Notes under the pieces: generated by a model | The model's input: the letters and a program-made list of their open reading frames with translations, nothing else | Databases searched by the model: none | What the model was told of the DNA's origin: nothing | Position numbers and translations under genes: made by a program | Virus record (IMG/VR): IMGVR_UViG_3300033486_000003 | Location: 1 to 51,424 of that record | DNA from: a virus | Lineage: Duplodnaviria; Caudoviricetes | Reading direction: 5' to 3' (one strand) | Length of the DNA: 51,424 nt | In this document: piece by piece, positions 1 through 51,424 of the stretch | Layout: every line of letters starts with the position of its first letter | How positions within the stretch are numbered: the stretch's first letter is position 1

Positions 1-127
1 TGTGCCATCGCACTTGTCAACGTTCCATGCCGACTGGGCCACAAATTCATCGGTCGAATTATTCCGGTAAAGTATCCCGAAGGTGGTCCCGGAGCGGCCA
101 AACATGAGTCGATCTTCTGCGGTTCTC
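1..127. repeat. Terminal direct repeat identical to 51298-51424 (circular assembly overlap)
   Basis: 127-bp exact match between the two window ends; an ORF reads through the join in frame. Confidence 0.95.
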
Positions 128-516
128 AGCCCCGCGTATTGATATGTGTTGGCGTCGATATTGGTTGATGGGAAATAGGCCGACAGAACAGAATGAATGT
201 CGTGAGCAGGGCGGTAATTGATGAAACGCTTGCTACGCATGATGCACGAGCCAACCCCCGCGCCGGATGAGACCACTCCACGCGAGTTGCTATTAGAGTC
301 TGCCCCCGTCCCGGTTGACGTAACCACGACATCCTCTGTTGAATTTCCGTAGATAAATTTAACGAGAATTTGGTCCCTGCGCTGCCCAACAATCGTCTGA
401 CCATACCCTGAATAATCGGGTTCATGGCCATGTCTGTCACGGTTGACGACTCGCAATCCACCCGTCCATTTCTCTGTGAGGGATTGCAAAAACGGCAGCA
501 GCATCGGGATGTTCAT
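1..516 (-). CDS. 5' part of an origin-spanning 416-aa putative virion protein (continues into 50563-51424)
   Basis: Manual translation is open from ATG at 516 (ATGA overlap with the stop of 513..716) through the join: MNIPMLLPFLQS...TAEDRLMFGRSGTTFG. Confidence 0.8.
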   Translation of the reverse strand, partial: MNIPMLLPFLQSLTEKWTGGLRVVNRDRHGHEPDYSGYGQTIVGQRRDQILVKFIYGNSTEDVVVTSTGTGADSNSNSRGVVSSGAGVGSCIMRSKRFINYRPAHDIHSVLSAYFPSTNIDANTYQYAGLRTAEDRLMFGRSGTTFGILYRNNSTDEFVAQSAWNVDKCDGT

Positions 517-10341: not shown

Positions 10342-10799
10342 CCGACAACATCACTCCTATTCATTTTTGCCCCACCTGCTACAAGATGGTGTCTCGTATC
10401 ACGTCAACGACCACGGGGGGCTTCATGTGTAATAGCTGCGGAAGCGACACCGAGACCATCAGTAAATTCCACGCAATGCGGGGAAAAGACGCACGCAGAG
10501 CGCTAGCATGGAGAGGGTTTTCCGAGTCTGGCGTAGCCGAGCCAATTACTGAATCATTGTACTTTTCTGACGTAATCGAGTTATTGCGGGATGAACTAGA
10601 ATCCGGATCAGATAACAGCAAAACCGTAATGCGAATGTTGCGCGCTGGCATGAGGGATTACCTCGATCAATGCCGTGACCTCGACGAAGATGCCGCTACA
10701 GAAAATGAGGAAGCCCGCCTAGACCGCTGCCAGCGTAGCCGAGACCTGCGCGCCGAGATTGCGCGAACCACCGAAAGCCTTTATGGGGTGAAATCATGA
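10338..10799 (+). CDS. Hypothetical protein with N-terminal Zn ribbon
   Basis: CPTC...CNSC; ATGA-coupled. Confidence 0.7.
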
Positions 10800-19015: not shown

Positions 19016-19822
19016 ATGTTAGGAAATGTTCTGATAACTGGCGGCTCTGGGTTCTTCGGAAGAGCCATGACCAAGCACCTGCTTGAGAACGACCTGGCAG
19101 ACAAGGTGTGCATATTCAGCCGCGACGAATATAAGCAATCGGTAATGAGAAGAGAATTCCGAGACGATCAGCGGCTTAGATTCTTCATCGGCGACGTTCG
19201 CAACCCAGAGCGAGTAAAGCGGGCGATGCGCGGGATTGATACAGTGATCCATGCCGCCGCCCTAAAGCGCATAGAAACCGCCCATTACAACCCCGAAGAG
19301 CTGGTTGAAACCAATATCAACGGAACCATCAACGTGGTCCATGCCGCCGAATCCATAGGGGCGATCTGTGTTTTCCTCTCCACAGATAAGGCTTGCGAGC
19401 CGAAAAGCGATTACGGATACAGCAAGGCCCTGGCTGAGACAATAGCGCTTGGAGCCGGAGCGGTAGTTACTAGATACGGAAACGTGGCCGGTTCGACAGG
19501 TAGCGTTATACCTCTGTGGCGGTCGATGCGGGCAATAGTCCCCGTAACCGATCCTGAATGTACCCGCTTCTTCATGACAGAACAGCAGGCCGTTGACCTT
19601 GTGATCAAGGCCGCCACTGACAAAAATACAACCGATGTCATAACCCCCGTATTGCCCGCTTACAGACTGGCCGACCTTGCTGAAGCCATGGGCAAGTTCA
19701 TGGAGGTGAAAGGTCTACCCTACTGGGAAAAGAAACACGAGAGTATGCGCCCCGGCGAGACAAGCGAACAGGCAAGGCGCATGAGCGTTGAAGAGCTGAG
19801 AGAGGCGCTGAAGTATGTTTAA
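19016..19822 (+). CDS. pseB: UDP-GlcNAc 4,6-dehydratase (PseB/FlaA1-like)
   Basis: ITGGSGFFG, SRDEYKQ, HAAALK, STDKA, YGYSK, RYGNVAGSTGSVIP. Confidence 0.88.
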   Translation: MLGNVLITGGSGFFGRAMTKHLLENDLADKVCIFSRDEYKQSVMRREFRDDQRLRFFIGDVRNPERVKRAMRGIDTVIHAAALKRIETAHYNPEELVETNINGTINVVHAAESIGAICVFLSTDKACEPKSDYGYSKALAETIALGAGAVVTRYGNVAGSTGSVIPLWRSMRAIVPVTDPECTRFFMTEQQAVDLVIKAATDKNTTDVITPVLPAYRLADLAEAMGKFMEVKGLPYWEKKHESMRPGETSEQARRMSVEELREALKYV

Positions 19823-20441
19823 CCCCCACCAAGTAACACGAGACTTTGAGGAGGCTATTTGCTCTTACACTGGAGCGCCTTATGCAGTGGCGGTAAACAG
19901 CTGTACCATGGCGTTGCTGTTAGCGATTAAGTGGCATGTAAAAGACCTTCATTACACTCCATGCGTAAAAATACCAAAACATACCTATGTATCAGTTCCG
20001 CAATCTATTTTCCATGCGGGAGGAAAAGTTAAATTTATTGATCATGAATGGGAAGCCGCTTATAGACTCAATCCGTTTCCAGTGTGGGATTCTGCGAGAT
20101 GGTTCACGTCAAATATGTACAATGCATTGACATGGGGTGGCGGTATTGGAATGGTCTGCGTCTCATTCCACGCAAGCAAAACACTTGGCATCGAGCAAGG
20201 CGGCGCAATACTCCACAACGACCCAGAGGCTGACAAGTGGTTTCGTAAAGCGCGATTCGATGGTAGAACTGAAGGCGTCGAACCAAAAGACGACACCTTC
20301 GACATGATTGGCTACCACTGTTATCTAAACCCATCAATAGCGGCGCAGGGGCTTTTGAAGTTGGCATCCTTGCCGAGGCATAACGCACCGCTACCGAATA
20401 GCGACTATCCGGACCTTTCAAAAATGGAAATCTTCAAATGA
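19815..20441 (+). CDS. pseC: DegT-family PLP sugar aminotransferase (PseC-like, short)
   Basis: AVAVNSCT.AL, DSA, SFHASK (PLP Lys), GGAI; only 208 aa. Confidence 0.75.
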   Translation: MFNPHQVTRDFEEAICSYTGAPYAVAVNSCTMALLLAIKWHVKDLHYTPCVKIPKHTYVSVPQSIFHAGGKVKFIDHEWEAAYRLNPFPVWDSARWFTSNMYNALTWGGGIGMVCVSFHASKTLGIEQGGAILHNDPEADKWFRKARFDGRTEGVEPKDDTFDMIGYHCYLNPSIAAQGLLKLASLPRHNAPLPNSDYPDLSKMEIFK

Positions 20442-20752
20442 ATGTAGAAATGATCATCGACAAACGCGAGGGGATGGTGATTCAGCGGTTCAAGCACCCC
20501 GTCGAAGAGGTGGTTTATGAGCCACAGAACGCCATCGACGTGGCCCGCGCTATTACTGACGCCGCCTTTGAGGCCCGAGACGGCATGAAGCCCGTTGGCG
20601 ACACCCTGAAAGCCGAGCTAGTGGAACGCCACAGATTCACGCTGACCAATCGACTGGCATTGATGCTTGGGACTCTGCGCCGCGACAACAAGAAGACAGA
20701 CGGACAGGTGGCGCAGGCGATGGTAGAAGCTTGCTTAAAAGAGATTTTCTGA
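20438..20752 (+). CDS. Hypothetical protein inside the sugar operon
   Basis: Translationally coupled on both sides. Confidence 0.7.
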   Translation: MNVEMIIDKREGMVIQRFKHPVEEVVYEPQNAIDVARAITDAAFEARDGMKPVGDTLKAELVERHRFTLTNRLALMLGTLRRDNKKTDGQVAQAMVEACLKEIF

Positions 20753-21336
20753 TGACCTGCATAGCCATTATTCCAGCGCGTGGGGGCAGCCGTAGAATTC
20801 CCAAGAAGAACATCCGCATGTTTCACGGCAAGCCGATCATCGCTTATTCGATTGAGGCGGCTAGAAAGTCGGGGGTATTCGATAAGATTGTGGTCTCCAC
20901 TGACTGCCCCGATATTGCAGAAGTCGCTATTCAATACGGGGCGGATGAGATTCACTATCGTGACGAATCCAGTTCAAGAGATGAAGTCGGAACTCAAGAA
21001 GTGGCGAGAGTCGTTCTGGCTGATTATCCGGACTTTGATTATGCGTGTGTGATTTATCCTTGTGCGCCGATGCTCTCGCCCGACACCCTTAAAAGGGCCA
21101 AGTTAGTATTTGATAATTTTGGATATACTGAATATGTCGTTCCGGTTGGAAATTGGCTACAAGACCCTGGGCAATTCTATTTTGGAAAAGCGCTTTCATT
21201 CTTCGAAGAACTACCGCTTCTTGGGCCGTACACCAGACTACTTCCAATAGACCCAAAAACAGACTGCGACATAAACACCATGGAAGATTGGGAACGAGCA
21301 GAACGCATGTACACCGAACTGAAGGAAAAATCATGA
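20752..21336 (+). CDS. pseF: CMP-nonulosonic acid synthetase (PseF/NeuA-like)
   Basis: IAIIPARGGSRRIPKKNI..FHGKPIIAYSI...VSTD...D.GQFY...DINTMEDW. Confidence 0.88.
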   Translation: MTCIAIIPARGGSRRIPKKNIRMFHGKPIIAYSIEAARKSGVFDKIVVSTDCPDIAEVAIQYGADEIHYRDESSSRDEVGTQEVARVVLADYPDFDYACVIYPCAPMLSPDTLKRAKLVFDNFGYTEYVVPVGNWLQDPGQFYFGKALSFFEELPLLGPYTRLLPIDPKTDCDINTMEDWERAERMYTELKEKS

Positions 21337-21902
21337 GCAAAGAGTGGTGGGCAGGGGACTTTGGAAACTCCTACACGAAGAGGAACCGGGTTGATTGGCA
21401 ACTGCGCTCCTTATTTTGGAATCACGTTATTTGCACAACGGGGGTGCGCAGTGCGTATGAGATAGGATGTAATTGCGGCTGGAACCTATCTGCCATCAAA
21501 CTAAGAACACCCTATGTTTGCGTTTCCGGCGAGGACGTAAACGAATCGGCCTTGGATCAAGCGTATGCCGCTGGCCTTGAAGTTTATCACGCCAACGCTG
21601 GCCATCACGCAACGGCAGAACTGGTGTTCACTGCCGGAGTGTTGATCCATATTCCGCCAGAAGAATTGAAAGAGATGATGCTGCGAATCATAGACATGAG
21701 CTGTGATTACGTTCTTGCCGTGGAGTACGCCGCCGACAAAGAGGAAGAAGTCGAGTATCGCGGCCACGCCGGGAAGCTGTGGCGTAGGCCGTTTGGGAAG
21801 CTGTACCAGGAGATGGGGCTGGAACTGATCGAAGAAGGCAAGGTCGGGGCCAACCAAGGCTTTGACGATTGCACCTATTGGTTGTTGAGGAAGCCAGCAT
21901 GA
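21333..21902 (+). CDS. Pseudaminic acid biosynthesis-associated methyltransferase
   Basis: W.GDFGNSY..RN, EIGCNCGWNL, LVFTAGVLIHI, EVEYRGHAGKLWRRPF. Confidence 0.8.
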   Translation: MSKEWWAGDFGNSYTKRNRVDWQLRSLFWNHVICTTGVRSAYEIGCNCGWNLSAIKLRTPYVCVSGEDVNESALDQAYAAGLEVYHANAGHHATAELVFTAGVLIHIPPEELKEMMLRIIDMSCDYVLAVEYAADKEEEVEYRGHAGKLWRRPFGKLYQEMGLELIEEGKVGANQGFDDCTYWLLRKPA

Positions 21903-22936
21903 TTCGCTGCAAAACCTGCTGTATGCCTGCTACTCGCCCTGACACCCCCTTCGTTGATGGAGAGTGTCAGGCGTGCATAAACTACCGGAACCGGAAGAAT
22001 ATCGACTGGGATGGCAGAAAGAAAGAGCTTGAAGCGCTGCTTGATCGGCACGATCGGCGGGTAATTGTACCGAGTTCGGGCGGGAAGGATTCTCATTTTC
22101 AAGTGCTGAAATTACTAGAGTACGGCTGTGATGTAACTATCGTTACAGCTCGCACCTGCCACTTAACCCCTATCGGTCGGCAGAACATCGACAACCTGGC
22201 GCGGTATGCCAGAACCATCGAGATAGTTCCAAATATGACGGTCCGGGCCAAGCTCAACCGGCTGGGGCTGGAGATGGTAGGAGACATAAGCTGGCCTGAA
22301 CACGCTTCAATATTCACCACTCCACTACGCGTGGCCGCCGATCTTGGCATCTCCTTGGTGATGTATGGCGAATGCCCGCAACAGGAATACGGCGGCCCCC
22401 AGGGCAGCGAAGAAGCCAAGCAAATGACCCGCCGATGGGTTACAGAGTTTGGCGGATTCCTTGGCTTGAGGCCATCCGATTTTGTCGGTATCGAAGGTAT
22501 AACCGCTAGAGACATGGCCGACTACGAGCTACCGAAAGGGCTTGAGGATAAGGGCATAGAGGCGCATTTCCTTGGGCAATACCTGCCGTGGGATAGCCAT
22601 CACAATGCTGAGGTGGCAAAGGCGCACGGGATGAGAACGCTTCCCTTACCTCCCGCGCCGTCTAATTGGTGGTTTGCCGAGAACTTAGATAATGCCCAAT
22701 GTGGTTTGCACGACTACTTCGGCTATCTGAAATATGGGTATGGCCGTGGGTGCGCACAGATCAGCATTGATGTTCGTGCTGGCCGCATCTCAAGAGGTGC
22801 CGCGATGAACTGGGTTACTCACAATGACGGCAAATATCCAGCAGTTTACGCGGGAGTTAGGGACGAGTACATATTGAGCCGGATAGGGCTGGATCAGTGG
22901 CGTATTGATGAATTGATAGAGAAGTTCAAGTGTTAG
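21899..22936 (+). CDS. N-acetyl sugar amidotransferase (WbuX/PseA-like)
   Basis: CKTC.MP.TRP...CQAC, PP-loop SGGKDS, HDYFGYLKYGYGR. Confidence 0.88.
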   Translation: MIRCKTCCMPATRPDTPFVDGECQACINYRNRKNIDWDGRKKELEALLDRHDRRVIVPSSGGKDSHFQVLKLLEYGCDVTIVTARTCHLTPIGRQNIDNLARYARTIEIVPNMTVRAKLNRLGLEMVGDISWPEHASIFTTPLRVAADLGISLVMYGECPQQEYGGPQGSEEAKQMTRRWVTEFGGFLGLRPSDFVGIEGITARDMADYELPKGLEDKGIEAHFLGQYLPWDSHHNAEVAKAHGMRTLPLPPAPSNWWFAENLDNAQCGLHDYFGYLKYGYGRGCAQISIDVRAGRISRGAAMNWVTHNDGKYPAVYAGVRDEYILSRIGLDQWRIDELIEKFKC

Positions 22937-23673
22937 CAATCCGCGTAATCCCCCAGCTCCTATGCCGTGGCCGCCAGCTGATCAAGGGCGAACGGTTTGA
23001 CTCGTGGCGCTCTGTTGGTGTGGCCGCACAGGCTGTTAGGGTCCACCAGATGCGCGGCGTTGATGAGTTGATGCTACTGGATATATCCGCCACCCCTGAA
23101 GGCCGCAGCCCCAATCTGGAGCTGGTTAAGGAACTGTCTGAATCGTTCTTCATGCCGCTGGCGGTAGGTGGTGGAGTATGCAGTTTGGCCCATGTTCGTG
23201 AACTACTCCGCCATGGTGCCGATAAGGTCGTGATCGGAACCTATGCCATCGAACACCCAGTAAAGTTCGCAGAGCTGGCCGAGGCGTTCGGGAATTCCAC
23301 CTTCGTCGTCTCGATAGATGTTCGTGACGGGCATGTGGTGACGAGGTGCGGGACCAACGAGTTGACCGGGTTAACCCCTGTCGAGTGCGCCAAGATTGTG
23401 GAAGAAGCCGGTGCCGGTGAGATAGTCATCAACAGCATCAACCGAGAAGGAACCATGCAGGGCTACGATCTCGACCTGATTAACTCTGTTAGCAATGCTG
23501 TCAGCGTCCCGGTGGTGGCCGCTGGTGGCTGCAAAGACTACGAGGATATGTACCACGCCATCCAAGCCGGTGCCAACGCCGTGGCGGCTGGTGCGCTGTT
23601 TCAGTTTACCGACTCCACTCCAAGAGGGGCGGTTAAATATCTGCATGAGAAGGGGGTCAATGTAAGGCTATGA
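22930..23673 (+). CDS. HisF-like cyclase subunit (WbuZ-type amidotransferase partner)
   Basis: RVIPQLL, DELMLLDI, MPLAVGGG, GADKV, GAGEI..NSINREGTMQGYD. Confidence 0.85.
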   Translation: MLAIRVIPQLLCRGRQLIKGERFDSWRSVGVAAQAVRVHQMRGVDELMLLDISATPEGRSPNLELVKELSESFFMPLAVGGGVCSLAHVRELLRHGADKVVIGTYAIEHPVKFAELAEAFGNSTFVVSIDVRDGHVVTRCGTNELTGLTPVECAKIVEEAGAGEIVINSINREGTMQGYDLDLINSVSNAVSVPVVAAGGCKDYEDMYHAIQAGANAVAAGALFQFTDSTPRGAVKYLHEKGVNVRL

Positions 23674-24068
23674 GATTGGTAGACGCCTACTGTGTTGATG
23701 ATCCGTGGATTTTATTCGAGCTGTTACAGCAGCGCACGCCTCAGCAGTCTATTTCCCACAAGGAAATGCCGACCTACAAGCAACATTGCGACTTCTTCTA
23801 CTCAAAGCCGTACGCTCACTGGTATTTGATCAAGAAAGACGGGGAATACATAGGCGGAATTTATCTTACAGGAATTAGAGAAATAGGGATTTCTATAATT
23901 CAGAAACACCAGGGCAACGGATATGGAAAGGTCGCCGTTAAATTGCTGCTGGAGCTTCACCCTGGCCGCGCCCTGTGGAACGTCAATCCTGAAAACGAGA
24001 GATCAATAGCCATGGCAAAATCGCTTGGCGGAAAACTGATCCAATACACCTTCGAGATACCAGCATGA
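23670..24068 (+). CDS. GNAT acetyltransferase (PseH-like)
   Basis: EIGISI...HQGNGYGK acetyl-CoA motif, N..S. Confidence 0.75.
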   Translation: MRLVDAYCVDDPWILFELLQQRTPQQSISHKEMPTYKQHCDFFYSKPYAHWYLIKKDGEYIGGIYLTGIREIGISIIQKHQGNGYGKVAVKLLLELHPGRALWNVNPENERSIAMAKSLGGKLIQYTFEIPA

Positions 24069-25021
24069 AAACACCTTTCATCATTGCTGAAATGTCGGCT
24101 AACCATCTTGGTGATTTTGAGCTGGCCAAGGCAATCATCGAGGAAGCCGCTAAAGCCGGTGCCGACGCCATCAAGCTCCAGACCTTTACCCCGGAGCAGA
24201 TGGTTGGCCCGCTCGATTATGTCGTGAAGACCGGACCATGGGCGGGCCATAAGCTGATTGACCTGTACCGGCAAGCACACACCTCACGCGAATGGCATAA
24301 GCCACTGTTCGACTGCGCCGCCAAGCTTGGAATCGAAGCATTCTCGACGCCGTTTCACCCTGATGACGTGGCCTTTTTGGAGACTCTAAACTGCCCGAGA
24401 TATAAGATTTCCAGCTTTGAGATTACCGATCTGGAGCTGATCAGGGCTGCGGCAGAGACGGGGAAGCCACTGATCATATCGACTGGAATGGCAACTACTA
24501 ATGAAATACTAATTGCTCAAGATTTAGTAGTTGAGATTAGTGGCGTGGTTCCGACATTCTTGAAATGTACCAGCGCATATCCAGCCGATGCTTCATCCGC
24601 GAATCTATCCGCCATGGGTGATGACTGGTTATTCGCCGGGGTATCAGATCACACCATAGGAATCGGTGTGGCTGTCGCGGCTACCGCACTTGGGGCGAAG
24701 GTGATCGAAAAGCACCTTTGCCTCAATAGATCATACGGTGGACTTGATGCCGGGTTTTCTATGGAGCCGCACGAGTTCAAACAGATGGTAATTGAATGTC
24801 GCCGAGCCGCTGCCGCCGTAAGCGGAAAAGGCGATAAAGCGGAAGAAATGACCGAGATGCGTCGCTCACTTTGGTTTGCAGAAGATTTGCCAGCCGGTAC
24901 ACAGATCGAGCGCCGCCACCTGAAAGTTGCACGACCAGCAGGCGGAAGGAACCCAGGCGATCTATCTTTGGTTGTCGGGCTGACCTTGAAACATGACGTA
25001 AAAGCCGGAGACCCCGTCTAA
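24065..25021 (+). CDS. pseI: Pseudaminic acid synthase (PseI/NeuB family, with SAF domain)
   Basis: IIAEMSANHLG, GADAIKLQT, KISSFEITD, STGMA, KCTSAYP, SDHT, IEKH. Confidence 0.9.
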   Translation: MKTPFIIAEMSANHLGDFELAKAIIEEAAKAGADAIKLQTFTPEQMVGPLDYVVKTGPWAGHKLIDLYRQAHTSREWHKPLFDCAAKLGIEAFSTPFHPDDVAFLETLNCPRYKISSFEITDLELIRAAAETGKPLIISTGMATTNEILIAQDLVVEISGVVPTFLKCTSAYPADASSANLSAMGDDWLFAGVSDHTIGIGVAVAATALGAKVIEKHLCLNRSYGGLDAGFSMEPHEFKQMVIECRRAAAAVSGKGDKAEEMTEMRRSLWFAEDLPAGTQIERRHLKVARPAGGRNPGDLSLVVGLTLKHDVKAGDPV

Positions 25022-31700: not shown

Positions 31701-34700
31701 TTGTGGGTCAGAAAGGTCGGCGTGTTCTTCCAGCATTCGCTGGTCTGTGATGGATTCGATCAAGGTATCCATCTTCTCGGCTTCGAGCAGTGCGTTTACC
31801 AGCGCATCACCAGACGAGAAGCCAAACCATTCGGCAACGGCATCGGGATCAAGCCCGCCCTTCTCAGTGCGCCAGCCATAGCGCCCTGTTGGCATGTACC
31901 GCCACTTGGCGGCAGGGGCGTCACCGTATTGAGCCTTGAGCGCCTCACTAGAGAGTTTGGTGGTGGTTAATCCTGCCTCGGTAATTCCTCTCCGTGCATC
32001 GCGGTTAAGCCCTTTCAAGTCGGCCAGTTCGCCATGAGACAAGAACCGCATGGCTTGGTATACGGGGCGGTTTCTTACCTCTGCATCTACTTCGGCCTTA
32101 ACTCCGGCGCGAACCTCCTTACCGGCCGCCTGAAGGCGCTTCATCTCTTTGCTCTTGGCGTTGTCCAGCCACTTCAAGTCTCGAAGGCTGCGGCGCTCCA
32201 GCTTTTCAACCGCGTCATCGGTCTGGGCGGTAACGGTGTCTTGGTACTTCTGCCACTCTTCTTCGTTGGTGAATTCTTCTCTGGTAAAGAGTGGAATGAA
32301 CGATCTTGCTTTCTGAGTGGCTGCAATCTGCTCATCTGAGGCAAGCATCCGATCAAACACGCTGCGAACCTCGGGGGTGATCTTCTCGGGGGAGAGATAG
32401 TCTTTGATGTTCTGGTAGACTTGATTCAGCCATGCCCGGTAAGTTCTGAACAGGGACTTCATCCCTTCGCTTGGGGCTTTGCCCTCAAACAGATAAACCT
32501 CAAACGCTTCCGCTACCTTCTCATGCCCGGCGCGGCGCTCTTCGATGGACATTGAATTCCACTTGTCGAGCGATTCAACACCAACAAACGAAAGCAAAGC
32601 AGCCATGTCGGCCTTCACTTTTTCCGGGGCATCCGGGCGGCTGGATATGTCTTTGTAGACTTCGAAGAAGAAGTGCCCAGTCTCATGCAGGACGGTTGAT
32701 AGATCAGCGCCTTCAAATAGTGATATGACCGATGGTGCTTGAGTGATGTCTTCGGCCATGGAAATTTGGCCACGGCGCTGCTGACGAAGAATGTTAGGGT
32801 CTTCTGGGGAGAAGGTGCCGATGTTGTCTGTTGACTTAATCTGCTTAATATCCAAAACGGCGAGTGACGAAGATCTATCGCTTTCGGCAAAATAAATTCC
32901 ATCGTATGGAATCGCATTACCGTCTAACCATTTCCTTAATTGTGGCTCCATCGTCCAAAACGGAAGCGCCCCACGATCTGATCCAGCGGTTGCGTATGAT
33001 GGAGCACTTGTCTCATCAAGAAATCTGTTCCATAAACGGATACCTTCATTCCTTGATGCCTCAAATGGTTTTTCGGCTTTAACGTAGATAGAGAAAACTT
33101 TTCCGCCACGGCCATATAATTCCGCGAACTCTTTTTCCTCAGTGGTAAAGATTAACGCTTGATCACTAAATGCTTCAGCGTTTTCGTGCATGCTTCCGCG
33201 ATACATAACCAATGGCCTGCCCTGATCATCCACCACACGACTATCAGCAAACCACTTCCAAAAGTTCCGCAGCGCCTCTTCCGTCTGCGCAATAGGCTGG
33301 CCCTTGCTGTTCGTCGTCGGGCGCTCTACGCCGTTGATGGTGATTGTTGGGGAGATGAATTTCTCCCCGGTTTTCTGATATAGCGTTCCACCCGCCACCG
33401 TTTCCCCGGGAGGAGGGGTCGGTTCGGCGGATGGCGGGGGAACTCTGAATTGAAGGCCGTAGCGTTCATAGACTTCGTGGGGCATGATTCCCAGTTCTTT
33501 GCCCATGACGATGGAGAAGGCCCGATGTAATTCGGCTTTCTGAGCGGCGGCGCGTTCGTCAAACTTTCCGGTACTGGTGATCTGCTGGGTAATCTGGTCC
33601 CGTACCTGATCGGCGCTGGCGATTATTGGGTCACGCTCTTCTGTCTCTGCGAGAATTTCGTCAGCGCGGGCCTGAAGCTTTTGGCCATACTCCTGCTCAA
33701 ACTTTTCGGCTTGAGCTGGTGTCGGGTCGTCGGGGTCGGTGCGGATGTGCTTGGAAAGCGCTGCGTGATGTTCGGTAGCGGCGATCTTTGAGGCGTAATC
33801 CCCCATGGTCATTCTGAGATCACCACCAGAAGCCACGGCTTCATCGAACTGTTCGGCTACTCCCGGAATTTCGCTGGCCACTTGGCGCGGATCAACCCCC
33901 AGCTCTTGGAAGTATTTAGCGAACTCGCGGGCCTCGATGTAGACCTCTGGGGTTTCCATTCCATCAACGAATCGTTTCAGGTCTTCGGGGGAACGCTTTC
34001 CTAGTTTCCCTTCTTTGGCGGCTTGGCCTACCTGCTCCATCATCGCAGCAGTGGCTTGTGCCTGTCTTGCGGCGGCGGCGTCTCGCACGATGTTAGCGGC
34101 ACCTGGATCGGACAATGCAGCAGTGGCAATATCAACAGGCGCGGTAGTGAACTCACCAAAGAATTCGAGCATCTGTTCTGCAAGACTGATATTTTCTCCA
34201 ACTGCTGCCGCAGAGGCGGTGGCACCAGCAGCACCAGCTACACCCTGCTTCACGGCTTCGGCGGCAACTGTTCCCGCCTTCTTCAAGCGGGTAGTACCAA
34301 CCGGTACAGGGGCAAAGGCAAATGCCGCATTCACCGCGCCTTCGACAACTGATTTGATACTCGCCCTACCGGCAGCGGCTTCTGGTGTTAGCCCTCTACT
34401 AATACCTTCGGCCATCTCTCCGCCAAAAGTCATTCCAGCATTAGTCCCAAATTGAAGTGCCGCCATAGGAACGGTGGCGGCTACATAGCGTTTCACTGCT
34501 TCATTAGTGAGTCTGTCGGTTACCGCCTTTCGGATGGGGGAAACAGCAAAACCGGCGGGGACTCCAAAGGCCGTCAATGGTGCTACCTGTTCGGCAAAGA
34601 GAACACCAAGAACACTAGGATTCTGCGCGAGATATGCCATGCCCTCGCCAATGCCACCCATGGTGGTGGGCTGCTGTTCGACGACGGAGGCAAATTCCTT

Positions 34701-35306
34701 CATCTTCGGGTCTTGGGGAATTGCACCATACGACTTGGCAGCAATCGACAACCCACCCGCTCCACGACCTACCTGAATCTTCTCTTGAGCCTTAGCCCAT
34801 TGCTCATCGGTCATGCTCTTGGGTTTAGGCAAGGTCATGCTGCCAATGTCACTCAACGTCTTGTCGATGAAGTACCCCATCGCCTCGGCGGTAACCCCGA
34901 CGTTGGTCGCCCCGCGCTTCAGACCGTTACCAATCCGCTCCCAGAAAGAAAGGTTATCAACGTCATCATGGGCGATCTTGGCGAATTCTGGATCGGCAAA
35001 GGCTTTTTTTGTGTACTCGGTATCCTGTAGCTTCTGGAGGATGTTGCTCTGTTTGGCGAGGTCAACAACTTGCGGCTGACGCTCTGCAACATCCATCGGA
35101 ACGCCGACGGTCAAAGCGCCCAACTTGGTTCGTGCCGCTTCGTCAGGGTTTGATTTCAGCGCATTATTGACGGACGTGCGAAGACGGGCATCTTCCATCG
35201 AGACAAGGGATTGGTGGGCTTCTTCAAGCCAGTTGCGGCTTTCGGGCAACGCAGCTGGCTTTGCCGTAAGATTTGTCGCCGCTTGTTCTAGCCATGCCTC
35301 GGCCAT
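28791..35306 (-). CDS. Large internal virion/ejection protein with polyvalent ART-like and HExxH domains
   Basis: 2171 aa in the T7 gp16-like position; FWKWFADSRVVDDQGRPLVMYRG...QIKSTDNIGTF; STVLHETGHFF. Confidence 0.75.
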   Translation of the reverse strand: MAEAWLEQAATNLTAKPAALPESRNWLEEAHQSLVSMEDARLRTSVNNALKSNPDEAARTKLGALTVGVPMDVAERQPQVVDLAKQSNILQKLQDTEYTKKAFADPEFAKIAHDDVDNLSFWERIGNGLKRGATNVGVTAEAMGYFIDKTLSDIGSMTLPKPKSMTDEQWAKAQEKIQVGRGAGGLSIAAKSYGAIPQDPKMKEFASVVEQQPTTMGGIGEGMAYLAQNPSVLGVLFAEQVAPLTAFGVPAGFAVSPIRKAVTDRLTNEAVKRYVAATVPMAALQFGTNAGMTFGGEMAEGISRGLTPEAAAGRASIKSVVEGAVNAAFAFAPVPVGTTRLKKAGTVAAEAVKQGVAGAAGATASAAAVGENISLAEQMLEFFGEFTTAPVDIATAALSDPGAANIVRDAAAARQAQATAAMMEQVGQAAKEGKLGKRSPEDLKRFVDGMETPEVYIEAREFAKYFQELGVDPRQVASEIPGVAEQFDEAVASGGDLRMTMGDYASKIAATEHHAALSKHIRTDPDDPTPAQAEKFEQEYGQKLQARADEILAETEERDPIIASADQVRDQITQQITSTGKFDERAAAQKAELHRAFSIVMGKELGIMPHEVYERYGLQFRVPPPSAEPTPPPGETVAGGTLYQKTGEKFISPTITINGVERPTTNSKGQPIAQTEEALRNFWKWFADSRVVDDQGRPLVMYRGSMHENAEAFSDQALIFTTEEKEFAELYGRGGKVFSIYVKAEKPFEASRNEGIRLWNRFLDETSAPSYATAGSDRGALPFWTMEPQLRKWLDGNAIPYDGIYFAESDRSSSLAVLDIKQIKSTDNIGTFSPEDPNILRQQRRGQISMAEDITQAPSVISLFEGADLSTVLHETGHFFFEVYKDISSRPDAPEKVKADMAALLSFVGVESLDKWNSMSIEERRAGHEKVAEAFEVYLFEGKAPSEGMKSLFRTYRAWLNQVYQNIKDYLSPEKITPEVRSVFDRMLASDEQIAATQKARSFIPLFTREEFTNEEEWQKYQDTVTAQTDDAVEKLERRSLRDLKWLDNAKSKEMKRLQAAGKEVRAGVKAEVDAEVRNRPVYQAMRFLSHGELADLKGLNRDARRGITEAGLTTTKLSSEALKAQYGDAPAAKWRYMPTGRYGWRTEKGGLDPDAVAEWFGFSSGDALVNALLEAEKMDTLIESITDQRMLEEHADLSDPQAIEDAANDAIHNEAHTRMVATELAKLDKKVGNLKMLLKASDEYARERIAKMKVRDLKPLQYLAAASRAARNARNAYKSLKEPETAYKTVYTAKIKKGLSEEDAIAKATEAKTRAEERIKERGGRPASELAAQAKRDQLLSGRLYRAAIEAQQNNEKALAYFKKFEKPEYLKRIDPDEQEAIVELLGRYDLRKSVTLKDIDLKEHVRQLAEDGEITEFTDIPEWVLTDKKSYKELTIEELEGLYETVRMLAAVGRNKKELIAGEERIALEDAINEMETVADKAIPKGVPNPIDKATLSMLQKAGETMRGFNAPLVKVEQLAQFLDGGIPNGPFAKYIFEPMAQAENARNKIDANALYKIVEMLDGLDGKRLMQQYEIKSLPKIDGKSQSLSVEAIMTMALNFGNESNEFKLKDGYGWTDDQVREIVSHLTAKEWEAVQGIWDAIGELWPQIVEVERSITGIAPKGVEPRPFTTPSGQQLKGGYFPVIYDPRSSAAGLKQAEAKAGAVEGQTGFFRPKVADGFTKKRITGAAGQILLTGGLSIIPQHLSEVSHLISHKKALRDAWKLLSNRKVQGIIKDKLGVDAYNQFTSWAHAVANGRAVTDDVGARWWGKWLGKLRRNISLVAMGFKYTTASAQLAGITASMEIFRQRSAENQVMGVGYLRKGVGEFTRHPFQSAKFVFSKSEQMNNRVNSFDRNIRENFERAIGKQGIMDFIRLLSMKHIGYMDMSIAIPTWTGAYRWAIDQELTETEAVAHADKIVRLSLGSGGVKDLNAAQRAASLQFVTLFFSYFATYHGRLTSILRDAKSENEVLKAHRKLDAGLRTFTLVIMAATLSELLAGRFPKCEEDDDGCYAEWAAGKSIAYLFAGIPVAREVASSLDTGHRFEGSPLLSVGKELVITGDTGAKLLAGEGEADKFMKHAMMTAGYAAGIPGLAQLNITGGYAMDLYTGEEEMESPFDARYFLIRKPKE

Positions 35307-41808: not shown

Positions 41809-42171
41809 TTAGTTAAATGTGGATGTAACCAAGCTTCCGGTGGACAAGCTGGCACCAGAGGTACTGACGCCAGTAATTGCCCCGTAGAACGTGGTAACGC
41901 TTGAACCCGCAGAGCTGAACTGAACGCCCATCACCATGTCACCGGGGCGCATACCCAGGTAATAGCCGTCTGAGAAGAAGTTCGATGCCGTGAGGTCGGT
42001 TGTTAGATTGGTTGATGCGTAATACCAAACGGAACCCCCCTGATTGTTGGGCGAGTTTGGTGCCGTGGACAGTCCAGTAGTTGCACCAGCGACGCCATAG
42101 AGCGCACCGCCCGCAATGCAACGCGGAGGATTGGCCAATGTTGATGATGCTGTAGAGCCTGAGTAAGCCAT
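41809..42171 (-). CDS. Ser/Thr-rich putative capsid decoration protein
   Basis: About 30% Ser+Thr by manual count; AAGGAG RBS; follows the capsid gene. Confidence 0.65.
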   Translation of the reverse strand: MAYSGSTASSTLANPPRCIAGGALYGVAGATTGLSTAPNSPNNQGGSVWYYASTNLTTDLTASNFFSDGYYLGMRPGDMVMGVQFSSAGSSVTTFYGAITGVSTSGASLSTGSLVTSTFN

Positions 42172-46825: not shown

Positions 46826-47058
46826 CCGAGTGTCTCGTTTTGAGTAAGGATGGTCGATGCTCTACCTTTTCTAGCCATCTGAGCAGCGATTGATTTTCGC
46901 TTTGCAAGTTTTGATGCGGCATCATTTAACATCGGCATCTCAAGAGGTTTTTCTGGAACGACCGCCGTAGACGGATTTTCTTTTCCGATTCCCATTACAG
47001 AACCAACAACCGTTTCCCCGAAAACACCGCTAACAACTTTTCCAAGATCATCGCTCAT
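46822..47058 (-). CDS. Small pre-portal protein
   Basis: Ends GRASTILT..ETLG, typical of this position. Confidence 0.7.
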   Translation of the reverse strand: MSDDLGKVVSGVFGETVVGSVMGIGKENPSTAVVPEKPLEMPMLNDAASKLAKRKSIAAQMARKGRASTILTQNETLG

Positions 47059-48689
47059 TTATATCTCCTTGCGGTGAGAGGCTCGCGGCCCGTTTGTACG
47101 TTGTTTGTTATGCCGCGCTTTTTGCGGTCGTTTGAGTGCATCCATTCCAGCGCGTGAGTTGTTTCCTTGGGGCCTGCCCACCAGGCCATTACCACGGCGT
47201 CGGCTTCGTCTGGCGAGAATCCTAACTTTGCCTTTACCCCGCCGCGCACTTTCCCGACCGTGTCATATTTAACTTTTGGCTCAACTTTTATCCCCTGATG
47301 AGATGCCTCAAATGTCGGTGCTGTCAACCCCGCCAATAGGCGATTATCAGGTGGCAATGAAATCGGCGAACCTCCCGATTGGTTTGGGTCTAGCGCCTCA
47401 CGAAACAGCCAGTACGCCGCGCTACGCACGTTCGGAAATGGTAGGCTTCCATCTCTGGATCGGCGCGTAGTACCTTCACTTCCCTTATATCCAATCGTCT
47501 CTATTTCATTGTCTTTCAGATGCTCATATAGAGGGCCGCCATACCCGCCGCCAAGGTCAACCACGATCAGCGCCTGATCCCGTCGCGTGGCCAGCACCAA
47601 GCCCGCTGCATACGCTCCGGCCTTGTCTTGCGGAATATCTTTCCCTGGCGTTTTGATGAACGGAGCGTACCAACCATCATAGCGAGGAGCCTGAACCATG
47701 GGGTCATCACCACCGCCAGAACAATCAACGCCGATTGCGCACATAGGTACATTTTGTGGCGGAGTGTCAGTCCAACGAGCCATGGCGGCGCGTACCCATT
47801 CTGTTGGGATACATTGATTTGCGGCGTCCTTCATGCCTGCCGTAAATTTTCCATACAGCAACTGGGACCGCAGCGGCTCTGGCAATGACTGCAATTGGGC
47901 GCGGTATTCTGGCGTATTTCGATATGGATTATCTTCAAGGCTGGCGGGTATAAAAGTGTAGGACTTGGCTGTATAGAATTCGCCATCTACCTCGTATTCG
48001 CCAGGCCCTTCAACCCACACCATCTGCCCTTCGCCGTCTCGCGTCACATAGACTGCCCAGCGCAATTCACCGGGGCTGGCTGGATTGGGAAATTTATCAT
48101 CAAGCCAAGGGGCGAACCATTTAAGCAGCCACAACCCATCCGTGGTGCGAGGAGGATTTGAACCCAACACAACGCGAGTTCGTTTGCCAGGTGGGGCGCG
48201 TAACCACGCAATGATCTGCGCAATCTGCATTTCAAGGAACTCGCCAGCCTCGTCAAATCCCATGTAGTCGCGTTCACGGCCGGCGTGATCTATCCAACTA
48301 TCCGGGTCTTTCATCCCTGCGAGTTTGATGGTTTTACCATTTGGCCAGGTCCATTCCAAATCCTGACCATTGAAGCTGGCTACCGATCCAATAATCTTTT
48401 TTCCTTCTTTCTCAAGGCCGTCGGTTTGGGTTCTTTCGCGGCGAAAGATGATGCCGCTATCTGATTCATTAACGGCCCACCCTAATTCAAGATGAGTTTT
48501 GCCGCCGCCTGCCTGACCTCCGTACAGAAGCACATCGGCCCGTGACATATACGCATCGGTCTGAGGTCCGGGGTTAGGAAGCCACTTCATTTTCTTGGTG
48601 GCCTCGACGGCCTGATGAGCCAATTCAGCACGCTGCTTTTCAGGCAGTGCGCCGAGTCGGCTTATCATTTCGTCGAGAACGTTGGACAC
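47055..48689 (-). CDS. terL: Terminase large subunit
   Basis: YGGQAGGGKT Walker A, FDEA Walker B, IGVD nuclease motif, SPDEADA. Confidence 0.92.
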   Translation of the reverse strand: MSNVLDEMISRLGALPEKQRAELAHQAVEATKKMKWLPNPGPQTDAYMSRADVLLYGGQAGGGKTHLELGWAVNESDSGIIFRRERTQTDGLEKEGKKIIGSVASFNGQDLEWTWPNGKTIKLAGMKDPDSWIDHAGRERDYMGFDEAGEFLEMQIAQIIAWLRAPPGKRTRVVLGSNPPRTTDGLWLLKWFAPWLDDKFPNPASPGELRWAVYVTRDGEGQMVWVEGPGEYEVDGEFYTAKSYTFIPASLEDNPYRNTPEYRAQLQSLPEPLRSQLLYGKFTAGMKDAANQCIPTEWVRAAMARWTDTPPQNVPMCAIGVDCSGGGDDPMVQAPRYDGWYAPFIKTPGKDIPQDKAGAYAAGLVLATRRDQALIVVDLGGGYGGPLYEHLKDNEIETIGYKGSEGTTRRSRDGSLPFPNVRSAAYWLFREALDPNQSGGSPISLPPDNRLLAGLTAPTFEASHQGIKVEPKVKYDTVGKVRGGVKAKLGFSPDEADAVVMAWWAGPKETTHALEWMHSNDRKKRGITNNVQTGREPLTARRYK

Positions 48690-49471
48690 TATTCGGCCCT
48701 TACCTCATTCCCGGTCTTGCCCATCGTCGGCATGATCCAGGTCTGGGTTGTGATCCATGTATCAATCATGTACTTCAAATCATCCAATGCGCCTGCCAAG
48801 AAAGCGGATTCGTTATTAGCCTGTTGCGCCCGCTGATCTGCGGCGCTCTTTCGCGCCAGCAACTCGTTGCGCCGGGCGGTTAGTTTGACCATCATCGGGG
48901 AGTTTTCCGAAACTCCATACATATAGGCAGGCTGGAGAATATCAGACTCAGGCGGAACCGTGACCTTGATGCCGCGCTGTACTGCCAATGTGATGAAATA
49001 CTGACATCCAGCACGCTGATAGCCGTACTCCTCATGAGCGGACATATCGACACCCCACATACCGATCTCAGTAACTCCTGGGGTTTCGAGAGCCATAGCC
49101 CACATCCATGAGAGAGATGAGGTGAAAAAATATGGACCGTATTTTTCCATCAGTTCATTAATCGGGATAGCCCGCGCATTCGGAATCTCAATAGGAAGAT
49201 TTAGGTCCATGTGAGGCGTTTCGCCAGCCATAAATACCGGACCTTTGAATCGAGTCAGGAACTCGACGTACTCGGGGGTGAACCATGCCTGTCCAGTACC
49301 GAGATGTCCTGGAATCTGTGGTTCCCACCGATGAGCCTCAAACCATGCATGAGCATGAGGGCCTGCGTAAGCATACGCTCCAGGAGAGCACCCCCAAATC
49401 TGCCATTCTGGATCACCGTAGGGAGCCAATCGTACCGAACTTGGGGCGCTTCCAATAAGTGCTATTTTCAT
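48689..49471 (-). CDS. Candidate glycosyltransferase (Maf/GT42/GT29-like motifs)
   Basis: KIALIGSAPS at the N-terminus, FTSS...MA, EIGMWGVDM; GGAGGAGG RBS before ATG 49471. Confidence 0.55.
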   Translation of the reverse strand: MKIALIGSAPSSVRLAPYGDPEWQIWGCSPGAYAYAGPHAHAWFEAHRWEPQIPGHLGTGQAWFTPEYVEFLTRFKGPVFMAGETPHMDLNLPIEIPNARAIPINELMEKYGPYFFTSSLSWMWAMALETPGVTEIGMWGVDMSAHEEYGYQRAGCQYFITLAVQRGIKVTVPPESDILQPAYMYGVSENSPMMVKLTARRNELLARKSAADQRAQQANNESAFLAGALDDLKYMIDTWITTQTWIMPTMGKTGNEVRAE

Positions 49472-49493: not shown

Positions 49494-49973
49494 CTATGTT
49501 GATGTTGAAAGTGTAAAACCGCTGGCTTGTGACGATGTACCACTCGTCAGGCCAATGGCCAGCCACATTGATGTGGTCATCCCTACCAGTGAAATGGCAC
49601 CGCCAAGACTGGAAATTTTTACAGTCGTAAATGATGATCCGACTGTGCTGACGATTGTCTCACTGTTCGCCGTTTTTACATAAACAGGACCGTTATCAAT
49701 CGGGCCGCAAATGACTTTGCTAACGCCTGGTACTGGAGGATCGAGAGTATATACCGCACTCGATGCCGCGCTAGTGCCGGGCAAATAGCTATACCCATAC
49801 GGATCGACATTTGCAGATGTGGAATCATCAGTTGACGTTTCCAATCTGATGTCCTTCGGTCCGACAATAAAATCCATCGTCCCTTTCCCGCCTGTTTGCT
49901 TTGTGCTGGCCACCTGCAATCCTAGTCTTCGACCGTGGACGCTTGTGGTCATGTACAGCCATTTGTATGACAT
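49494..49973 (-). CDS. Ser/Thr-rich putative virion protein
   Basis: About 30% Ser+Thr by manual count; beta-rich pattern. Confidence 0.65.
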   Translation of the reverse strand: MSYKWLYMTTSVHGRRLGLQVASTKQTGGKGTMDFIVGPKDIRLETSTDDSTSANVDPYGYSYLPGTSAASSAVYTLDPPVPGVSKVICGPIDNGPVYVKTANSETIVSTVGSSFTTVKISSLGGAISLVGMTTSMWLAIGLTSGTSSQASGFTLSTST

Positions 49974-50229: not shown

Positions 50230-50553
50230 TTATCGACCCTCTCCAGGAGTCGCATAGATCGAACCTGTTCCAGATGACAATGAAACTGCCATGTAGGTGG
50301 CCCCCCCTGGAGTTACGACGCGTTCAACTCCAGGGGCTATCATGTAGCCAGGCGCTGCGGCTGCGGTTGTTGGGAATGTTGACGTGGCTGTCACGTCTCC
50401 AAAAACAACACTCGCCCAAGACGCGCTAGCATTGCTTATGCTGACTTGAGGGGTCGCTCCAGTGATGCCGAGAGCCATGTTCGTACTTGCGGTCGATGCG
50501 GCAATCTTGATCGTGTCGCCGCTTGCGTGGAACGCCTTGTCTGAAAAGCTCAT
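50230..50553 (-). CDS. Ser/Thr-rich putative virion protein
   Basis: About 27% Ser+Thr; ends IYATPGEG; AGGAG RBS. Confidence 0.7.
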   Translation of the reverse strand: MSFSDKAFHASGDTIKIAASTASTNMALGITGATPQVSISNASASWASVVFGDVTATSTFPTTAAAAPGYMIAPGVERVVTPGGATYMAVSLSSGTGSIYATPGEGR

Positions 50554-50562
50554 GATTGTCTC

Positions 50563-51424
50563 CTAACTGAAGTATTCTTCCCAGCGCGCCGACATTGAAA
50601 CGTCGCTGGCATTTGCTGATTGGGCGGTAATAGTAAATTTCTCGCCAGGCTGCAATTCGAGGTGAAAATGCCCTGCCCCCACGTCGATAGCACGGCTGTC
50701 TACCTTTGCTAGACTTATTGGGAATTCCAACTTCCCGCCGCTGAACGACGTTGACGAGGTATCTGCGGCGATGATCGAATTCGCGGTACTAACGGGGACG
50801 GCGTTATACGATGTTGAAAGTGTCGCATTTGAGTATCCCCGAAACGTCACACTTTTTACCCCATCGGTCACGAACGATAAAAATACAGCCTCGGCCTGAA
50901 CGGTGTTGGGCTTGCCTTGGAATATTGAGACATTTTCAAACGTGCCGAGATATGTCTCTACTCCGGCGACTAGCGTCTTTGTCGGCAATTCTCCCGCGAA
51001 TATTCGATGTCCCGCGTGAGAGTGAACGCCTGCCGTGTATCCAGCGTTCCATGATCCAGATCCAACCGTCACAGCCCCAGCGCCAGCGGTTCTCCCAGCC
51101 TCGATTGCGATGTTGAATGAGGGATTTGAGAATGAAACAGCGTCGGTTGTGTTGGTCCCATCGAATACATGGCATGTGATCCATCCGTCCCTATAACCTG
51201 AATATACCTGACAGATGATCGGAGCAACCCCCAGCCAGCCGAACATGAAACGGTATTGATTCAGTTTTGTCGGATCGAGTGTGAATTTTGAAATACCTGT
51301 GCCATCGCACTTGTCAACGTTCCATGCCGACTGGGCCACAAATTCATCGGTCGAATTATTCCGGTAAAGTATCCCGAAGGTGGTCCCGGAGCGGCCAAAC
51401 ATGAGTCGATCTTCTGCGGTTCTC
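50563..51424 (-). CDS. 3' part of the origin-spanning 416-aa putative virion protein
   Basis: WNVDKCDGTG..FTLDPTKLN.Y.F.FGWLG; frame continues to ATG at 516. Confidence 0.8.
   Translation of the reverse strand, partial: RTAEDRLMFGRSGTTFGILYRNNSTDEFVAQSAWNVDKCDGTGISKFTLDPTKLNQYRFMFGWLGVAPIICQVYSGYRDGWITCHVFDGTNTTDAVSFSNPSFNIAIEAGRTAGAGAVTVGSGSWNAGYTAGVHSHAGHRIFAGELPTKTLVAGVETYLGTFENVSIFQGKPNTVQAEAVFLSFVTDGVKSVTFRGYSNATLSTSYNAVPVSTANSIIAADTSSTSFSGGKLEFPISLAKVDSRAIDVGAGHFHLELQPGEKFTITAQSANASDVSMSARWEEYFS
51298..51424. repeat. Terminal direct repeat identical to 1-127
   Basis: Exact match. Confidence 0.95.

Follow-up and report, generated by a model that had tools for sequence, protein, structure and literature searches.

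A candidate Maf/GT42-fold nonulosonate transferase encoded among the head genes of an uncultured tailed phage

Introduction

The virus record IMGVR_UViG_3300033486_000003 (hereafter the window, meaning the whole stretch of DNA that was analysed) is a complete viral contig of 51,424 bp with a 127-bp terminal repeat, and its record class is that of direct terminal repeats. Immediately upstream of its large terminase gene it encodes a protein of 260 amino acids that we name P0001 (open reading frame (ORF) 48689-49471, minus strand). On balance we favour the view that P0001 is a minimal, virus-specific transferase of the Maf/GT42 fold that uses a cytidine monophosphate (CMP)-activated nonulosonate and O-glycosylates virion surface proteins; the donor, the acceptor, and the O-linkage are presumed. 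The phage has its own pathway for a sialic-acid-like sugar as well as a sialyltransferase-shaped enzyme among its head genes, and so it probably sugar-coats its own particle.

The P0001 gene

The ORF was proposed in an earlier, sequence-only reading of this DNA, and it is real: translation of 48689-49471 on the minus strand gives the 260 amino acids. The gene and its terminase neighbours are as follows.

48689..49471, minus strand: candidate nonulosonate transferase P0001, with a Rossmann-like catalytic domain (residues 1-190) and a long C-terminal helix
49477..49485, minus strand: Shine-Dalgarno sequence GGAGGAGGG of P0001, a strong ribosome binding site with a 5-nt spacer to the ATG at 49471
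47055..48689, minus strand: large terminase (TerL), phrog_979, E 1.2e-42
1185-1736, minus strand: small terminase (TerS), phrog_606, E 1e-57; Pfam GP3_package

The TAG stop codon of P0001, as read from the sequence, shares one base with the GTG start of the large terminase gene—P0001 is therefore a late gene, translationally coupled to packaging. A role for P0001 as the small terminase was considered and rejected; the genuine TerS sits at 1185-1736 on the minus strand, and the fold of P0001 is Rossmann-like.

Predicted fold

An AlphaFold2 model of P0001, built with 42 relatives, has a mean predicted local distance difference test (pLDDT) score of 86.2 and consists of a Rossmann-like domain (residues 1-190) followed by a single helix (residues 192-240). 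The sequence-only reading had described the C-terminus as a coiled coil; what the model contains there is one long predicted helix. In a Foldseek search of the PDB there were nine matches at E <= 0.001, all of them GT42 sialyltransferases (CstII entries and the Pasteurella enzyme 9c08), with E values from 3.7e-5 to 6.6e-4 and a probability of 1.00. A scan of 48,161 chains with VIA-align, which is independent of Foldseek, ranked the flagellin glycosyltransferase Maf first (5mu5_A, Z 11.8, root-mean-square deviation 2.9, 157 residues aligned), aligning residues 1-181 of the P0001 model with residues 273-500 of the 5mu5 chain. Next came the MptE 6-hydroxymethylpterin pyrophosphokinase (HPPK) 8sd5 (Z 10.2), SteA (Z 9.4), and the sialyltransferase Cst-I (2p56, Z 9.1), with thiamine pyrophosphokinases (TPKs; Z 6.8-7.7, TPK1 at 7.7) and mammalian GT29 sialyltransferases (Z 6.2-7.7) further down. 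Among the named entries of a viral structure library, those closest to P0001 are DUF115/MptE-like proteins and the GT29 of a giant virus. The resemblance to CstII, Maf, and GT29 anticipated by the sequence-only reading is thus borne out, as Maf, Cst-I, CstII (Foldseek E 4e-5), and GT29 are among the best structural matches.

The modelled fold of P0001 is a DUF115/sialyltransferase-type variant of the GT-A glycosyltransferase fold, and by itself this fold cannot tell transferases from MptE/TPK kinases. One must consider, then, that P0001 has a DUF115-type fold with another chemistry—that of an MptE/TPK-like pyrophosphokinase or some other nucleotide-dependent enzyme without a role in glycosylation. 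The Z scores of the MptE HPPK, SteA, and the TPKs are in keeping with such an enzyme, as are the presence of TPK and HPPK in the Foldseek list and the position of P0001 outside any established sequence family. However, GT42 sialyltransferases are its only sequence-level matches, its family is strongly linked to genes for NeuB and a CMP-sugar cytidylyltransferase, and a Pfam scan of 59 window ORFs turned up no pterin or thiamine family; we regard this alternative as quite improbable.

Conserved motifs and residues

The conserved sequence elements of P0001 are listed below.

49439..49468, minus strand: motif 1, KIALIGSAPS (residues 2-11), a glycine-rich loop that follows strand 1 and resembles GxGPS of Maf
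49331..49339, minus strand: E45-A-H47 within the WFExH motif, where strand 3 ends; a candidate catalytic acid or base
49115..49123, minus strand: T117-S118-S119, aligned with TSG of CstII in the hidden Markov model (HMM) alignment to GT42 chains
49043..49069, minus strand: motif 2, EIGMWGVDM (residues 135-143), whose counterparts in the alignments are IYLSGIDF of CstII and the GxD motif of Maf
48752..48898, minus strand: long C-terminal helix (residues 192-240, DSSP on the model), which the family conserves, with G227 kept in >=90%

Motifs 1 and 2 lie exactly where the sequence-only reading had placed them, and they are conserved far more than chance would allow and are the most conserved parts of the family. 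Among 42 relatives G7, S8, A9, P10, S12, G140, D142, and M143 are invariant; among 56 distant relatives (33-63% identity) G7, H47, and G140 are invariant, and at least 90% retain E45, P10, S12, S118, D142, and M143. The C-terminal helix matches only generic coiled coils in the structure scan (Z about 5).

A profile of the 56 members, compared with PDB sequences, returned 11 matches at E <= 10: the best eight are GT42 sialyltransferases (E 0.087-0.81) and the remaining three are coiled coils on the C-terminal helix. The GT42 alignment spans the pattern TS..M.A.AI...I.L.G.D, placing T117-S118-S119 ... I136-G-x-W-G140-V-D142 against TSG ... IYLSGID of CstII, and E148-Y149 of P0001 is aligned with a Tyr in the Pasteurella enzyme.

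Six bacterial Maf_flag10 segments have a similar layout, with GAGPSL at the place of motif 1, an acidic residue about 40 residues on, a Ser in a GGS/SSV context, and a GxD motif about 23 residues downstream of it. Mutagenesis described in a preprint (bioRxiv 10.1101/2020.06.03.131540) identifies D272, S334, and D357 as critical in the Clostridium botulinum Maf (CbMaf), and an acidic pair, 324 and 415, as critical in the Magnetospirillum magneticum Maf (MmMaf). E45/H47, S118, and D142 of P0001 have nearly the same spacing as these critical acidic, Ser, and Asp residues. Residue 273 of the Maf chain aligns with residue 1 of the P0001 model, which would put D142 near Maf 415; we infer the correspondence of catalytic residues from spacing and not from superposition.

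Sequence family and distribution

Searches with P0001 itself found 0 Pfam families at E <= 10, 0 matches in NCBIfam, 0 phmmer matches against the PDB at E <= 10, and a single, meaningless match in PHROGs (E 0.2). Widening the Pfam search to 56 family members gave 0/56 matches to PF01973 (E <= 1) or to any sialyltransferase family, and 15 longer relatives gave nothing usable; at the level of sequence P0001 is a member of neither GT42 nor Maf_flag10 (PF01973). One lead is a viral cluster in the ESM Atlas (score 0.79), in which 16% of the members carry PF01973.

The family itself is large. There are 906 relatives in a word-indexed database, and of the 120 that were listed not one carries a Pfam domain or a telling name; an exhaustive search yielded 2667 cluster representatives (50% identity) at E <= 1e-3, 1423 of them at <= 1e-10. 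It is also essentially viral: the ESM Atlas neighbours of P0001 are 89-100% viral, and one scan of cellular genomes, with one genome for each of 185,579 prokaryote species, found the family on three short contigs from metagenome-assembled genomes. Among 50,697 GenBank phage records a single one has a tblastn match to P0001, Microcystis phage Mvi-Yong1342-1 (PP496355). Its homologue (L093:19902-20705; 32% identity, profile E 4.5e-54) is the sole one from a cultured phage, and its annotation as a 'type 11 methyltransferase' is probably a misannotation.

Copy number and gene integrity vary within the family. Some related phages (loci L095, L161, L191, and L204) carry two copies each, in tandem in L191 and L204 and with a few hundred bases to about 3.6 kb between them in L161 and L095. 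In two complete relatives (G128 and G129) the match to P0001 is split into a short N-terminal piece and a main piece about 30 nt apart; this break near the Gly-rich loop may be a small insertion or a frameshift.

Association with nonulosonate biosynthesis

The pseudaminic acid (Pse)-type operon named in the sequence-only reading is present in the window, and it is the presumed source of the donor.

19016..25021, plus strand: pseudaminic-type nonulosonate operon, presumed donor pathway (Pfam, NCBIfam)

Its genes include a PseB-like gene, short DegT-like ORFs, a PseF-like cytidylyltransferase, a Pse-associated methylase, a WbuX-like amidotransferase, a HisF-like gene, a GNAT gene, and NeuB/PseI, and this gene set recurs in relatives. 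Two of the assignments stand close to or below their thresholds: the PseF-like match scores 178 bits, under its cut-off of 205.7, and the methylase scores 112.2 bits against a cut-off of 112.05. At 19815-20752 (plus strand), in place of a PseC aminotransferase of about 380 amino acids, there are an ORF of 208 amino acids (matching DegT/PseC in its N-terminal part only) and one of 104. Frameshift or decay of the Pse genes was considered for this pair and ruled out; the two ORFs are kept separate in two relatives (L002 and L007, 45-70% identity).

As the sequence-only reading had supposed in calling it the missing transferase, P0001 is the only glycosyltransferase-like protein among the 59 ORFs of the window scanned against Pfam, and none of these ORFs belongs to another glycosyltransferase family.

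The link between P0001 and the operon extends to other viruses. For close relatives (43-76% identity) we searched 31 records, chosen as the longer of 80 contigs; for distant relatives we searched 33 records (29.6-86.6 kb) drawn from two other sub-alignments with 473 and 405 IMG/VR relatives. All of these counts cover carriers of the P0001 family. NeuB (PF03102) is found in 25/31 close records and 18/33 distant ones. Among near-complete genomes the proportions rise to 14/15 (close, >=90% complete) and 12/15 (distant), or 26 of 30 when pooled, so that the co-occurrence with neuB-like genes in phages proposed as a check by the sequence-only reading is found. By way of a base rate, NeuB is detectable in 3/50,697 GenBank phage records. 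In the reverse direction, 5/5 further contigs fetched through NeuB contain the P0001 family; this NeuB-first fetch of viral contigs used narrow patterns and returned 16 loci, mostly of the same lineage. In the lineage with genomes of 65-86 kb the two genes lie about 18-23 kb apart (from coordinates), and the link is thus more than a shared cassette.

Four near-complete records lack NeuB and were searched for PF02348, and two of them, G035 and G061, hold a CTP_transf_3 CMP-sugar cytidylyltransferase. In G035 it adjoins a methyltransferase and a WbqC-like gene. In G061 it is part of a sugar operon with PseB-like, DegT, oxidoreductase, methyltransferase, formyltransferase, and GNAT genes; there the cytidylyltransferase is fused to a class-III aminotransferase in a protein of 689 amino acids (L299:6877-8946, minus strand), and the operon has no NeuB detectable with Pfam.

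Co-occurrence of this kind would look alike if P0001 performed a step in the sugar pathway, for example as a substitute for a PseG-type nucleotide-sugar hydrolase, instead of the final transfer. Pfam and NCBIfam searches recognised no PseG-like gene in the window operon, which leaves room for such a substitute. We nevertheless judge this role very improbable: the fold of P0001 is that of CMP-sugar transferases, its gene lies in the head module and outside the operon in both the window and the 65-86 kb lineage, and the family persists in complete phages without NeuB.

Head-module context and candidate acceptors

The features that surround P0001 in the late region, and those that could be its substrates, are given here.

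49494..49973, minus strand: ST159, 159 amino acids, Ser/Thr-rich (30%), all-beta, with the N-terminal motif TSxHGRRLGL; upstream partner and candidate acceptor
50230..50553, minus strand: Ser/Thr-rich protein (27%) of 107 amino acids, without a family match in Pfam, NCBIfam, or PHROGs; a further possible acceptor
41809-42171, minus strand: protein of 120 amino acids beside the capsid gene, 30% Ser+Thr; another possible glycosylation target
50563..51424 (C-terminal part) and 1..516 (N-terminal part), minus strand: phrog_1645 virion structural protein, running across the contig junction
709-1182, minus strand: Gp10-like protein of 157 amino acids between TerS and the structural gene (Pfam 'major coat protein-like', E 1.3e-8)

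Given the circular permutation of the contig, the late operon on the minus strand can be read as one run from TerS on: TerS, the 157-residue Gp10-like protein, the phrog_1645 protein (across the junction), the 107-residue Ser/Thr-rich protein, a 63-residue protein, ST159, P0001, TerL, portal, scaffold, capsid, and the tail genes. Homologues of the Gp10-like protein are also found upstream of the ST gene in several relatives.

The gene order in 80 close loci, on a single strand, runs PseB ... PseF ... NeuB ... (TerS) ... ST159-like, enzyme, TerL, portal. TerL lies downstream of the P0001 homologue in 78/80 of these loci, and in 39/80 the fetched flank also shows NeuB, directly ahead of the ST159-enzyme-TerL block and on its strand. 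Other lineages differ in the immediate neighbours: the P0001 homologue comes after the major head protein and an ST-like gene (L126), a head protein and a phrog_3758 virion structural protein (L138), a head protein and other small ORFs (L207), or the portal (L174 and L098), and in the Microcystis phage it stands just before TerS and TerL. With neighbours this varied, the constant feature is the head morphogenesis module and not the terminase as such. The location in a head-assembly operon claimed by the sequence-only reading therefore stands, and the position after a Ser/Thr-rich protein with a spike- or fibre-like fold fits a virion target.

The gene directly upstream is conserved as well. 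An ST159-family gene precedes the P0001 homologue (within 900 nt, same strand) in 80/80 close loci. An HMM built from 44 of these loci and the window's own ST159 describes a family of about 150 amino acids with the TSxHGRRLGL N-terminal motif and 24-32% Ser+Thr. When 64 loci were fetched through the ST family, 56 had a P0001 homologue within 400 nt; in seven more the enzyme is present at the same locus and on the same strand (500-700 nt downstream in two, and missed through reading-frame boundaries in five), and the last contig ends 97 nt past the ST gene. Several ST-family ORFs can occur together, with three in L094 and two in L095.

The model of ST159 (pLDDT 75.5) is an all-beta domain. In the structure scan, 8 of the 48,161 chains reached Z >= 5, and five of these are phage tailspike, baseplate, or capsid-spike domains: Solidus gp83 (Z 10.9), KP1 (9.2), CBA120 TSP4 (8.9 and 8.6), and the Pa223 capsid spike (7.4). 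The set is completed by 6o38 (a chaperone-substrate complex, Z 7.6), StcE, and one further chain. Entries of the viral structure library that contain the ST159 domain carry the names tail fibre, tail protein, and Mtd-N. A complex prediction for P0001 with ST159, run without controls, scored 0.00 in both runs, which gives no indication on binding either way.

Members of the 65-86 kb lineage have another small protein encoded upstream, of about 127 amino acids, that starts with 'MSVNYS...' and has 19-26% Ser+Thr; the one copy scanned matched phrog_3758. A relationship of this protein to ST159 was considered and rejected (hhalign probability 0.1%), so we treat the two as different families. For the ORF upstream of the enzyme in 56 loci of this lineage, the Ser+Thr fraction has a median of 0.22, against a background median of 0.124 (1889 ORFs; 90th percentile 0.253). 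The most Ser/Thr-rich proteins of the window are ST159 (0.30), the 120-residue protein (0.30), and the 107-residue protein (0.27), and P0001 itself stands at 0.11.

This context also bears on the possibility that P0001 is a nonulosonate transferase whose target is a host structure—flagellin, pilin, lipopolysaccharide, or capsule—with a change of receptor, for example, that blocks superinfection or the re-adsorption of progeny. Maf, its closest fold match, acts on flagellin, and the fold and the NeuB co-occurrence would fit a host target equally well. The genomic setting argues otherwise: the P0001 gene is translationally coupled to TerL, the family is embedded in head modules with at least four gene orders, and a small Ser/Thr-rich protein with a virion-like fold always precedes the gene. 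P0001 also has no counterpart of the additional domains that flank the core of the 632-residue Maf chain at its N- and C-termini, and its family is nearly absent from the cellular genomes scanned. We consider a host target unlikely.

Proposed mechanism and opposing evidence

In the mechanism that we favour, P0001 is made late, alongside the products of the head and packaging genes, and the phage operon would build a pool of CMP-activated pseudaminic-type donor. P0001 would bind the CMP-sugar in a pocket formed by the Gly-rich loop, TSS, and GVDM, with E45/H47 as the candidate base in the transfer. Before or during assembly the sugar would be attached to Ser/Thr hydroxyl groups on virion surface proteins; ST159, encoded directly upstream, is the foremost candidate acceptor, and other nearby Ser/Thr-rich structural proteins are possible acceptors. 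The conserved C-terminal helix may serve oligomerisation or acceptor recognition. Carriers without a donor pathway would draw on the CMP-nonulosonates of the host or on CMP-activated 3-deoxy-D-manno-oct-2-ulosonic acid (Kdo); a Maf enzyme is reported to accept N-acetylneuraminic acid (Neu5Ac) and Kdo donors (PMC11339370).

A broader version of this proposal is possible, and we offer it tentatively: a large set of uncultured tailed phages of several lineages (about 40-94 kb) may make CMP-activated pseudaminic-type sugars and use the P0001 family to coat small fibre- or spike-like head proteins with this acidic sugar, with the C-terminal helix reading the TSxHGRRLGL tag of the acceptor. If so, it would be the first glycan coat of a sialic-acid-like kind on a bacteriophage, and the compact enzyme-tag pair might be usable for protein glyco-engineering.

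Several observations weigh against a nonulosonate transferase that modifies the virion. With regard to the protein, the Foldseek template modelling score (TM-score) to CstII is low (about 0.4), and MptE, SteA, and TPK, which are not glycosyltransferases, score about as well as Cst-I. No sequence method puts P0001 in a known family, and although hhalign aligned the Ser-to-GxD stretch of the P0001 family with that of the six Maf_flag10 segments, the alignment is not significant (probability 1.3%, E 0.04). With regard to the genomes, the sugar operon of the window, unlike that of relatives, closes the plus-strand early/middle block, some 24 kb from the P0001 gene and on the strand opposite to it. 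The family occurs without NeuB in 4/30 near-complete records; the complete genomes G004 and G032 have neither NeuB nor a cytidylyltransferase in PF03102 and PF02348 searches, and the complete Microcystis phage PP496355 also lacks NeuB. Conversely, the P0001 family is absent from two GenBank phage records of other lineages that do have NeuB, one from the Kyanoviridae (149 kb) and one of a 484-kb phage (0/2; the positive control worked). Finally, a few related lineages inherit both traits, and the co-occurrence counts are therefore not independent events.

Taken as a whole, the observation made in the sequence-only reading is confirmed and its interpretation holds in part: the fold, the co-occurrence, and the status of P0001 as the sole glycosyltransferase-like protein agree with it; by sequence, P0001 belongs to neither GT42 nor Maf_flag10. 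Nothing supports its further suggestion that P0001 docks on the procapsid.

Other features of the window

Further genes of the window are worth recording in their own right. A protein of 856 amino acids (4351-6921, minus strand) is a SNF2/DEAD-type helicase with Hint and LAGLIDADG homing-endonuclease domains near its N-terminus, and probably contains an intein. A pentapeptide-repeat protein of 261 amino acids (E 1.1e-55) is encoded in the early region (10796-11581, plus strand), and among the virion genes there is a polyvalent protein of 2171 amino acids (28791-35306, minus strand) with LPD22 and ADP-ribosyltransferase (ART-PolyVal) domains. The window also has a holin of the gene transfer agent (GTA) type with three transmembrane segments (25213-25791, minus strand), and G035, one of the relatives without NeuB, encodes a GcrA-like regulator (L301:1299-1850); the GTA-type holin and the GcrA-like regulator hint at alphaproteobacterial hosts.

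Significance and comparison with known systems

To our knowledge, protein-acting nonulosonate transferases are few and poorly understood. If our reading of P0001 is true, they would gain a compact branch that is specific to viruses and very large, with 2667 clusters (50% identity) and no family annotation. It would mean that phages are able to cover their particles in sialic-acid-like sugars of the bacterial kind, and a coat of this kind could alter surface charge, adsorption, stability, and recognition by hosts, grazers, and immune systems. The reading would give a function to a widespread viral 'hypothetical protein' and explain a costly 6-kb sugar operon. The literature searched, mostly outside subscription journals, contains no report of a phage-encoded nonulosonate transferase or of a nonulosonate on phage particles, and we found no relevant report on DUF115/Maf proteins in phages; the SugarBase preprint mentions phages solely as flagellotropic predators.

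The closest known system is Maf (PF01973; 5mu5 from M. magneticum), which has the Gly-rich loop after strand 1, the acidic residue, the Ser, and the GxD motif at similar spacing. Maf proteins share with P0001 a genomic tie to a pathway of the Pse or legionaminic acid (Leg) type, and the presumed acceptors of both are Ser/Thr-rich surface proteins. In contrast to the 632-residue 5mu5 chain, P0001 has 260 amino acids and is reduced to the central domain and one long helix; it is also virus-encoded and located in head modules, and no flagellin family was found among the scanned window ORFs.

The GT42 sialyltransferases CstII and Cst-I of Campylobacter jejuni (1ro7 and 2p56) and the Pasteurella multocida enzyme 9c08 have the motif TS..M.A.AI...I.L.G.D..(Y). 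They resemble P0001 in fold and in the CMP-binding motif—TSG ... GIDFY of CstII aligns with TSS ... GVDM of P0001—and their donor is a CMP-activated nine-carbon sugar, as is proposed for P0001. P0001 differs in its low TM-score and lack of Pfam membership. GT42 enzymes sialylate the sugars of lipo-oligosaccharides and are not known to act on proteins. The MptE-type HPPKs and the TPKs have the same Rossmann-like core; however, their chemistry differs, and the P0001 family is tied to NeuB, without a pterin or thiamine context.

Glycosylation of virions is known from mycobacteriophages, in which phage glycosyltransferases encoded beside structural genes decorate capsid and tail proteins. These systems are reported to use ordinary nucleotide sugars and transferases unrelated to P0001. 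The proposed P0001 system would work alike, although no nonulosonate pathway is known to take part in the mycobacteriophage systems. In PMC11256854, capsid glycosylation is deduced from two putative glycosyltransferases. A cellular parallel is FlmG of Caulobacter, which PMC7591256 presents as a flagellin pseudaminyl transferase, a modular enzyme for cytoplasmic protein O-glycosylation. FlmG is described as an enzyme of another class; it and P0001 would have in common a Pse-type donor and specific Ser/Thr-rich structural proteins as acceptors.

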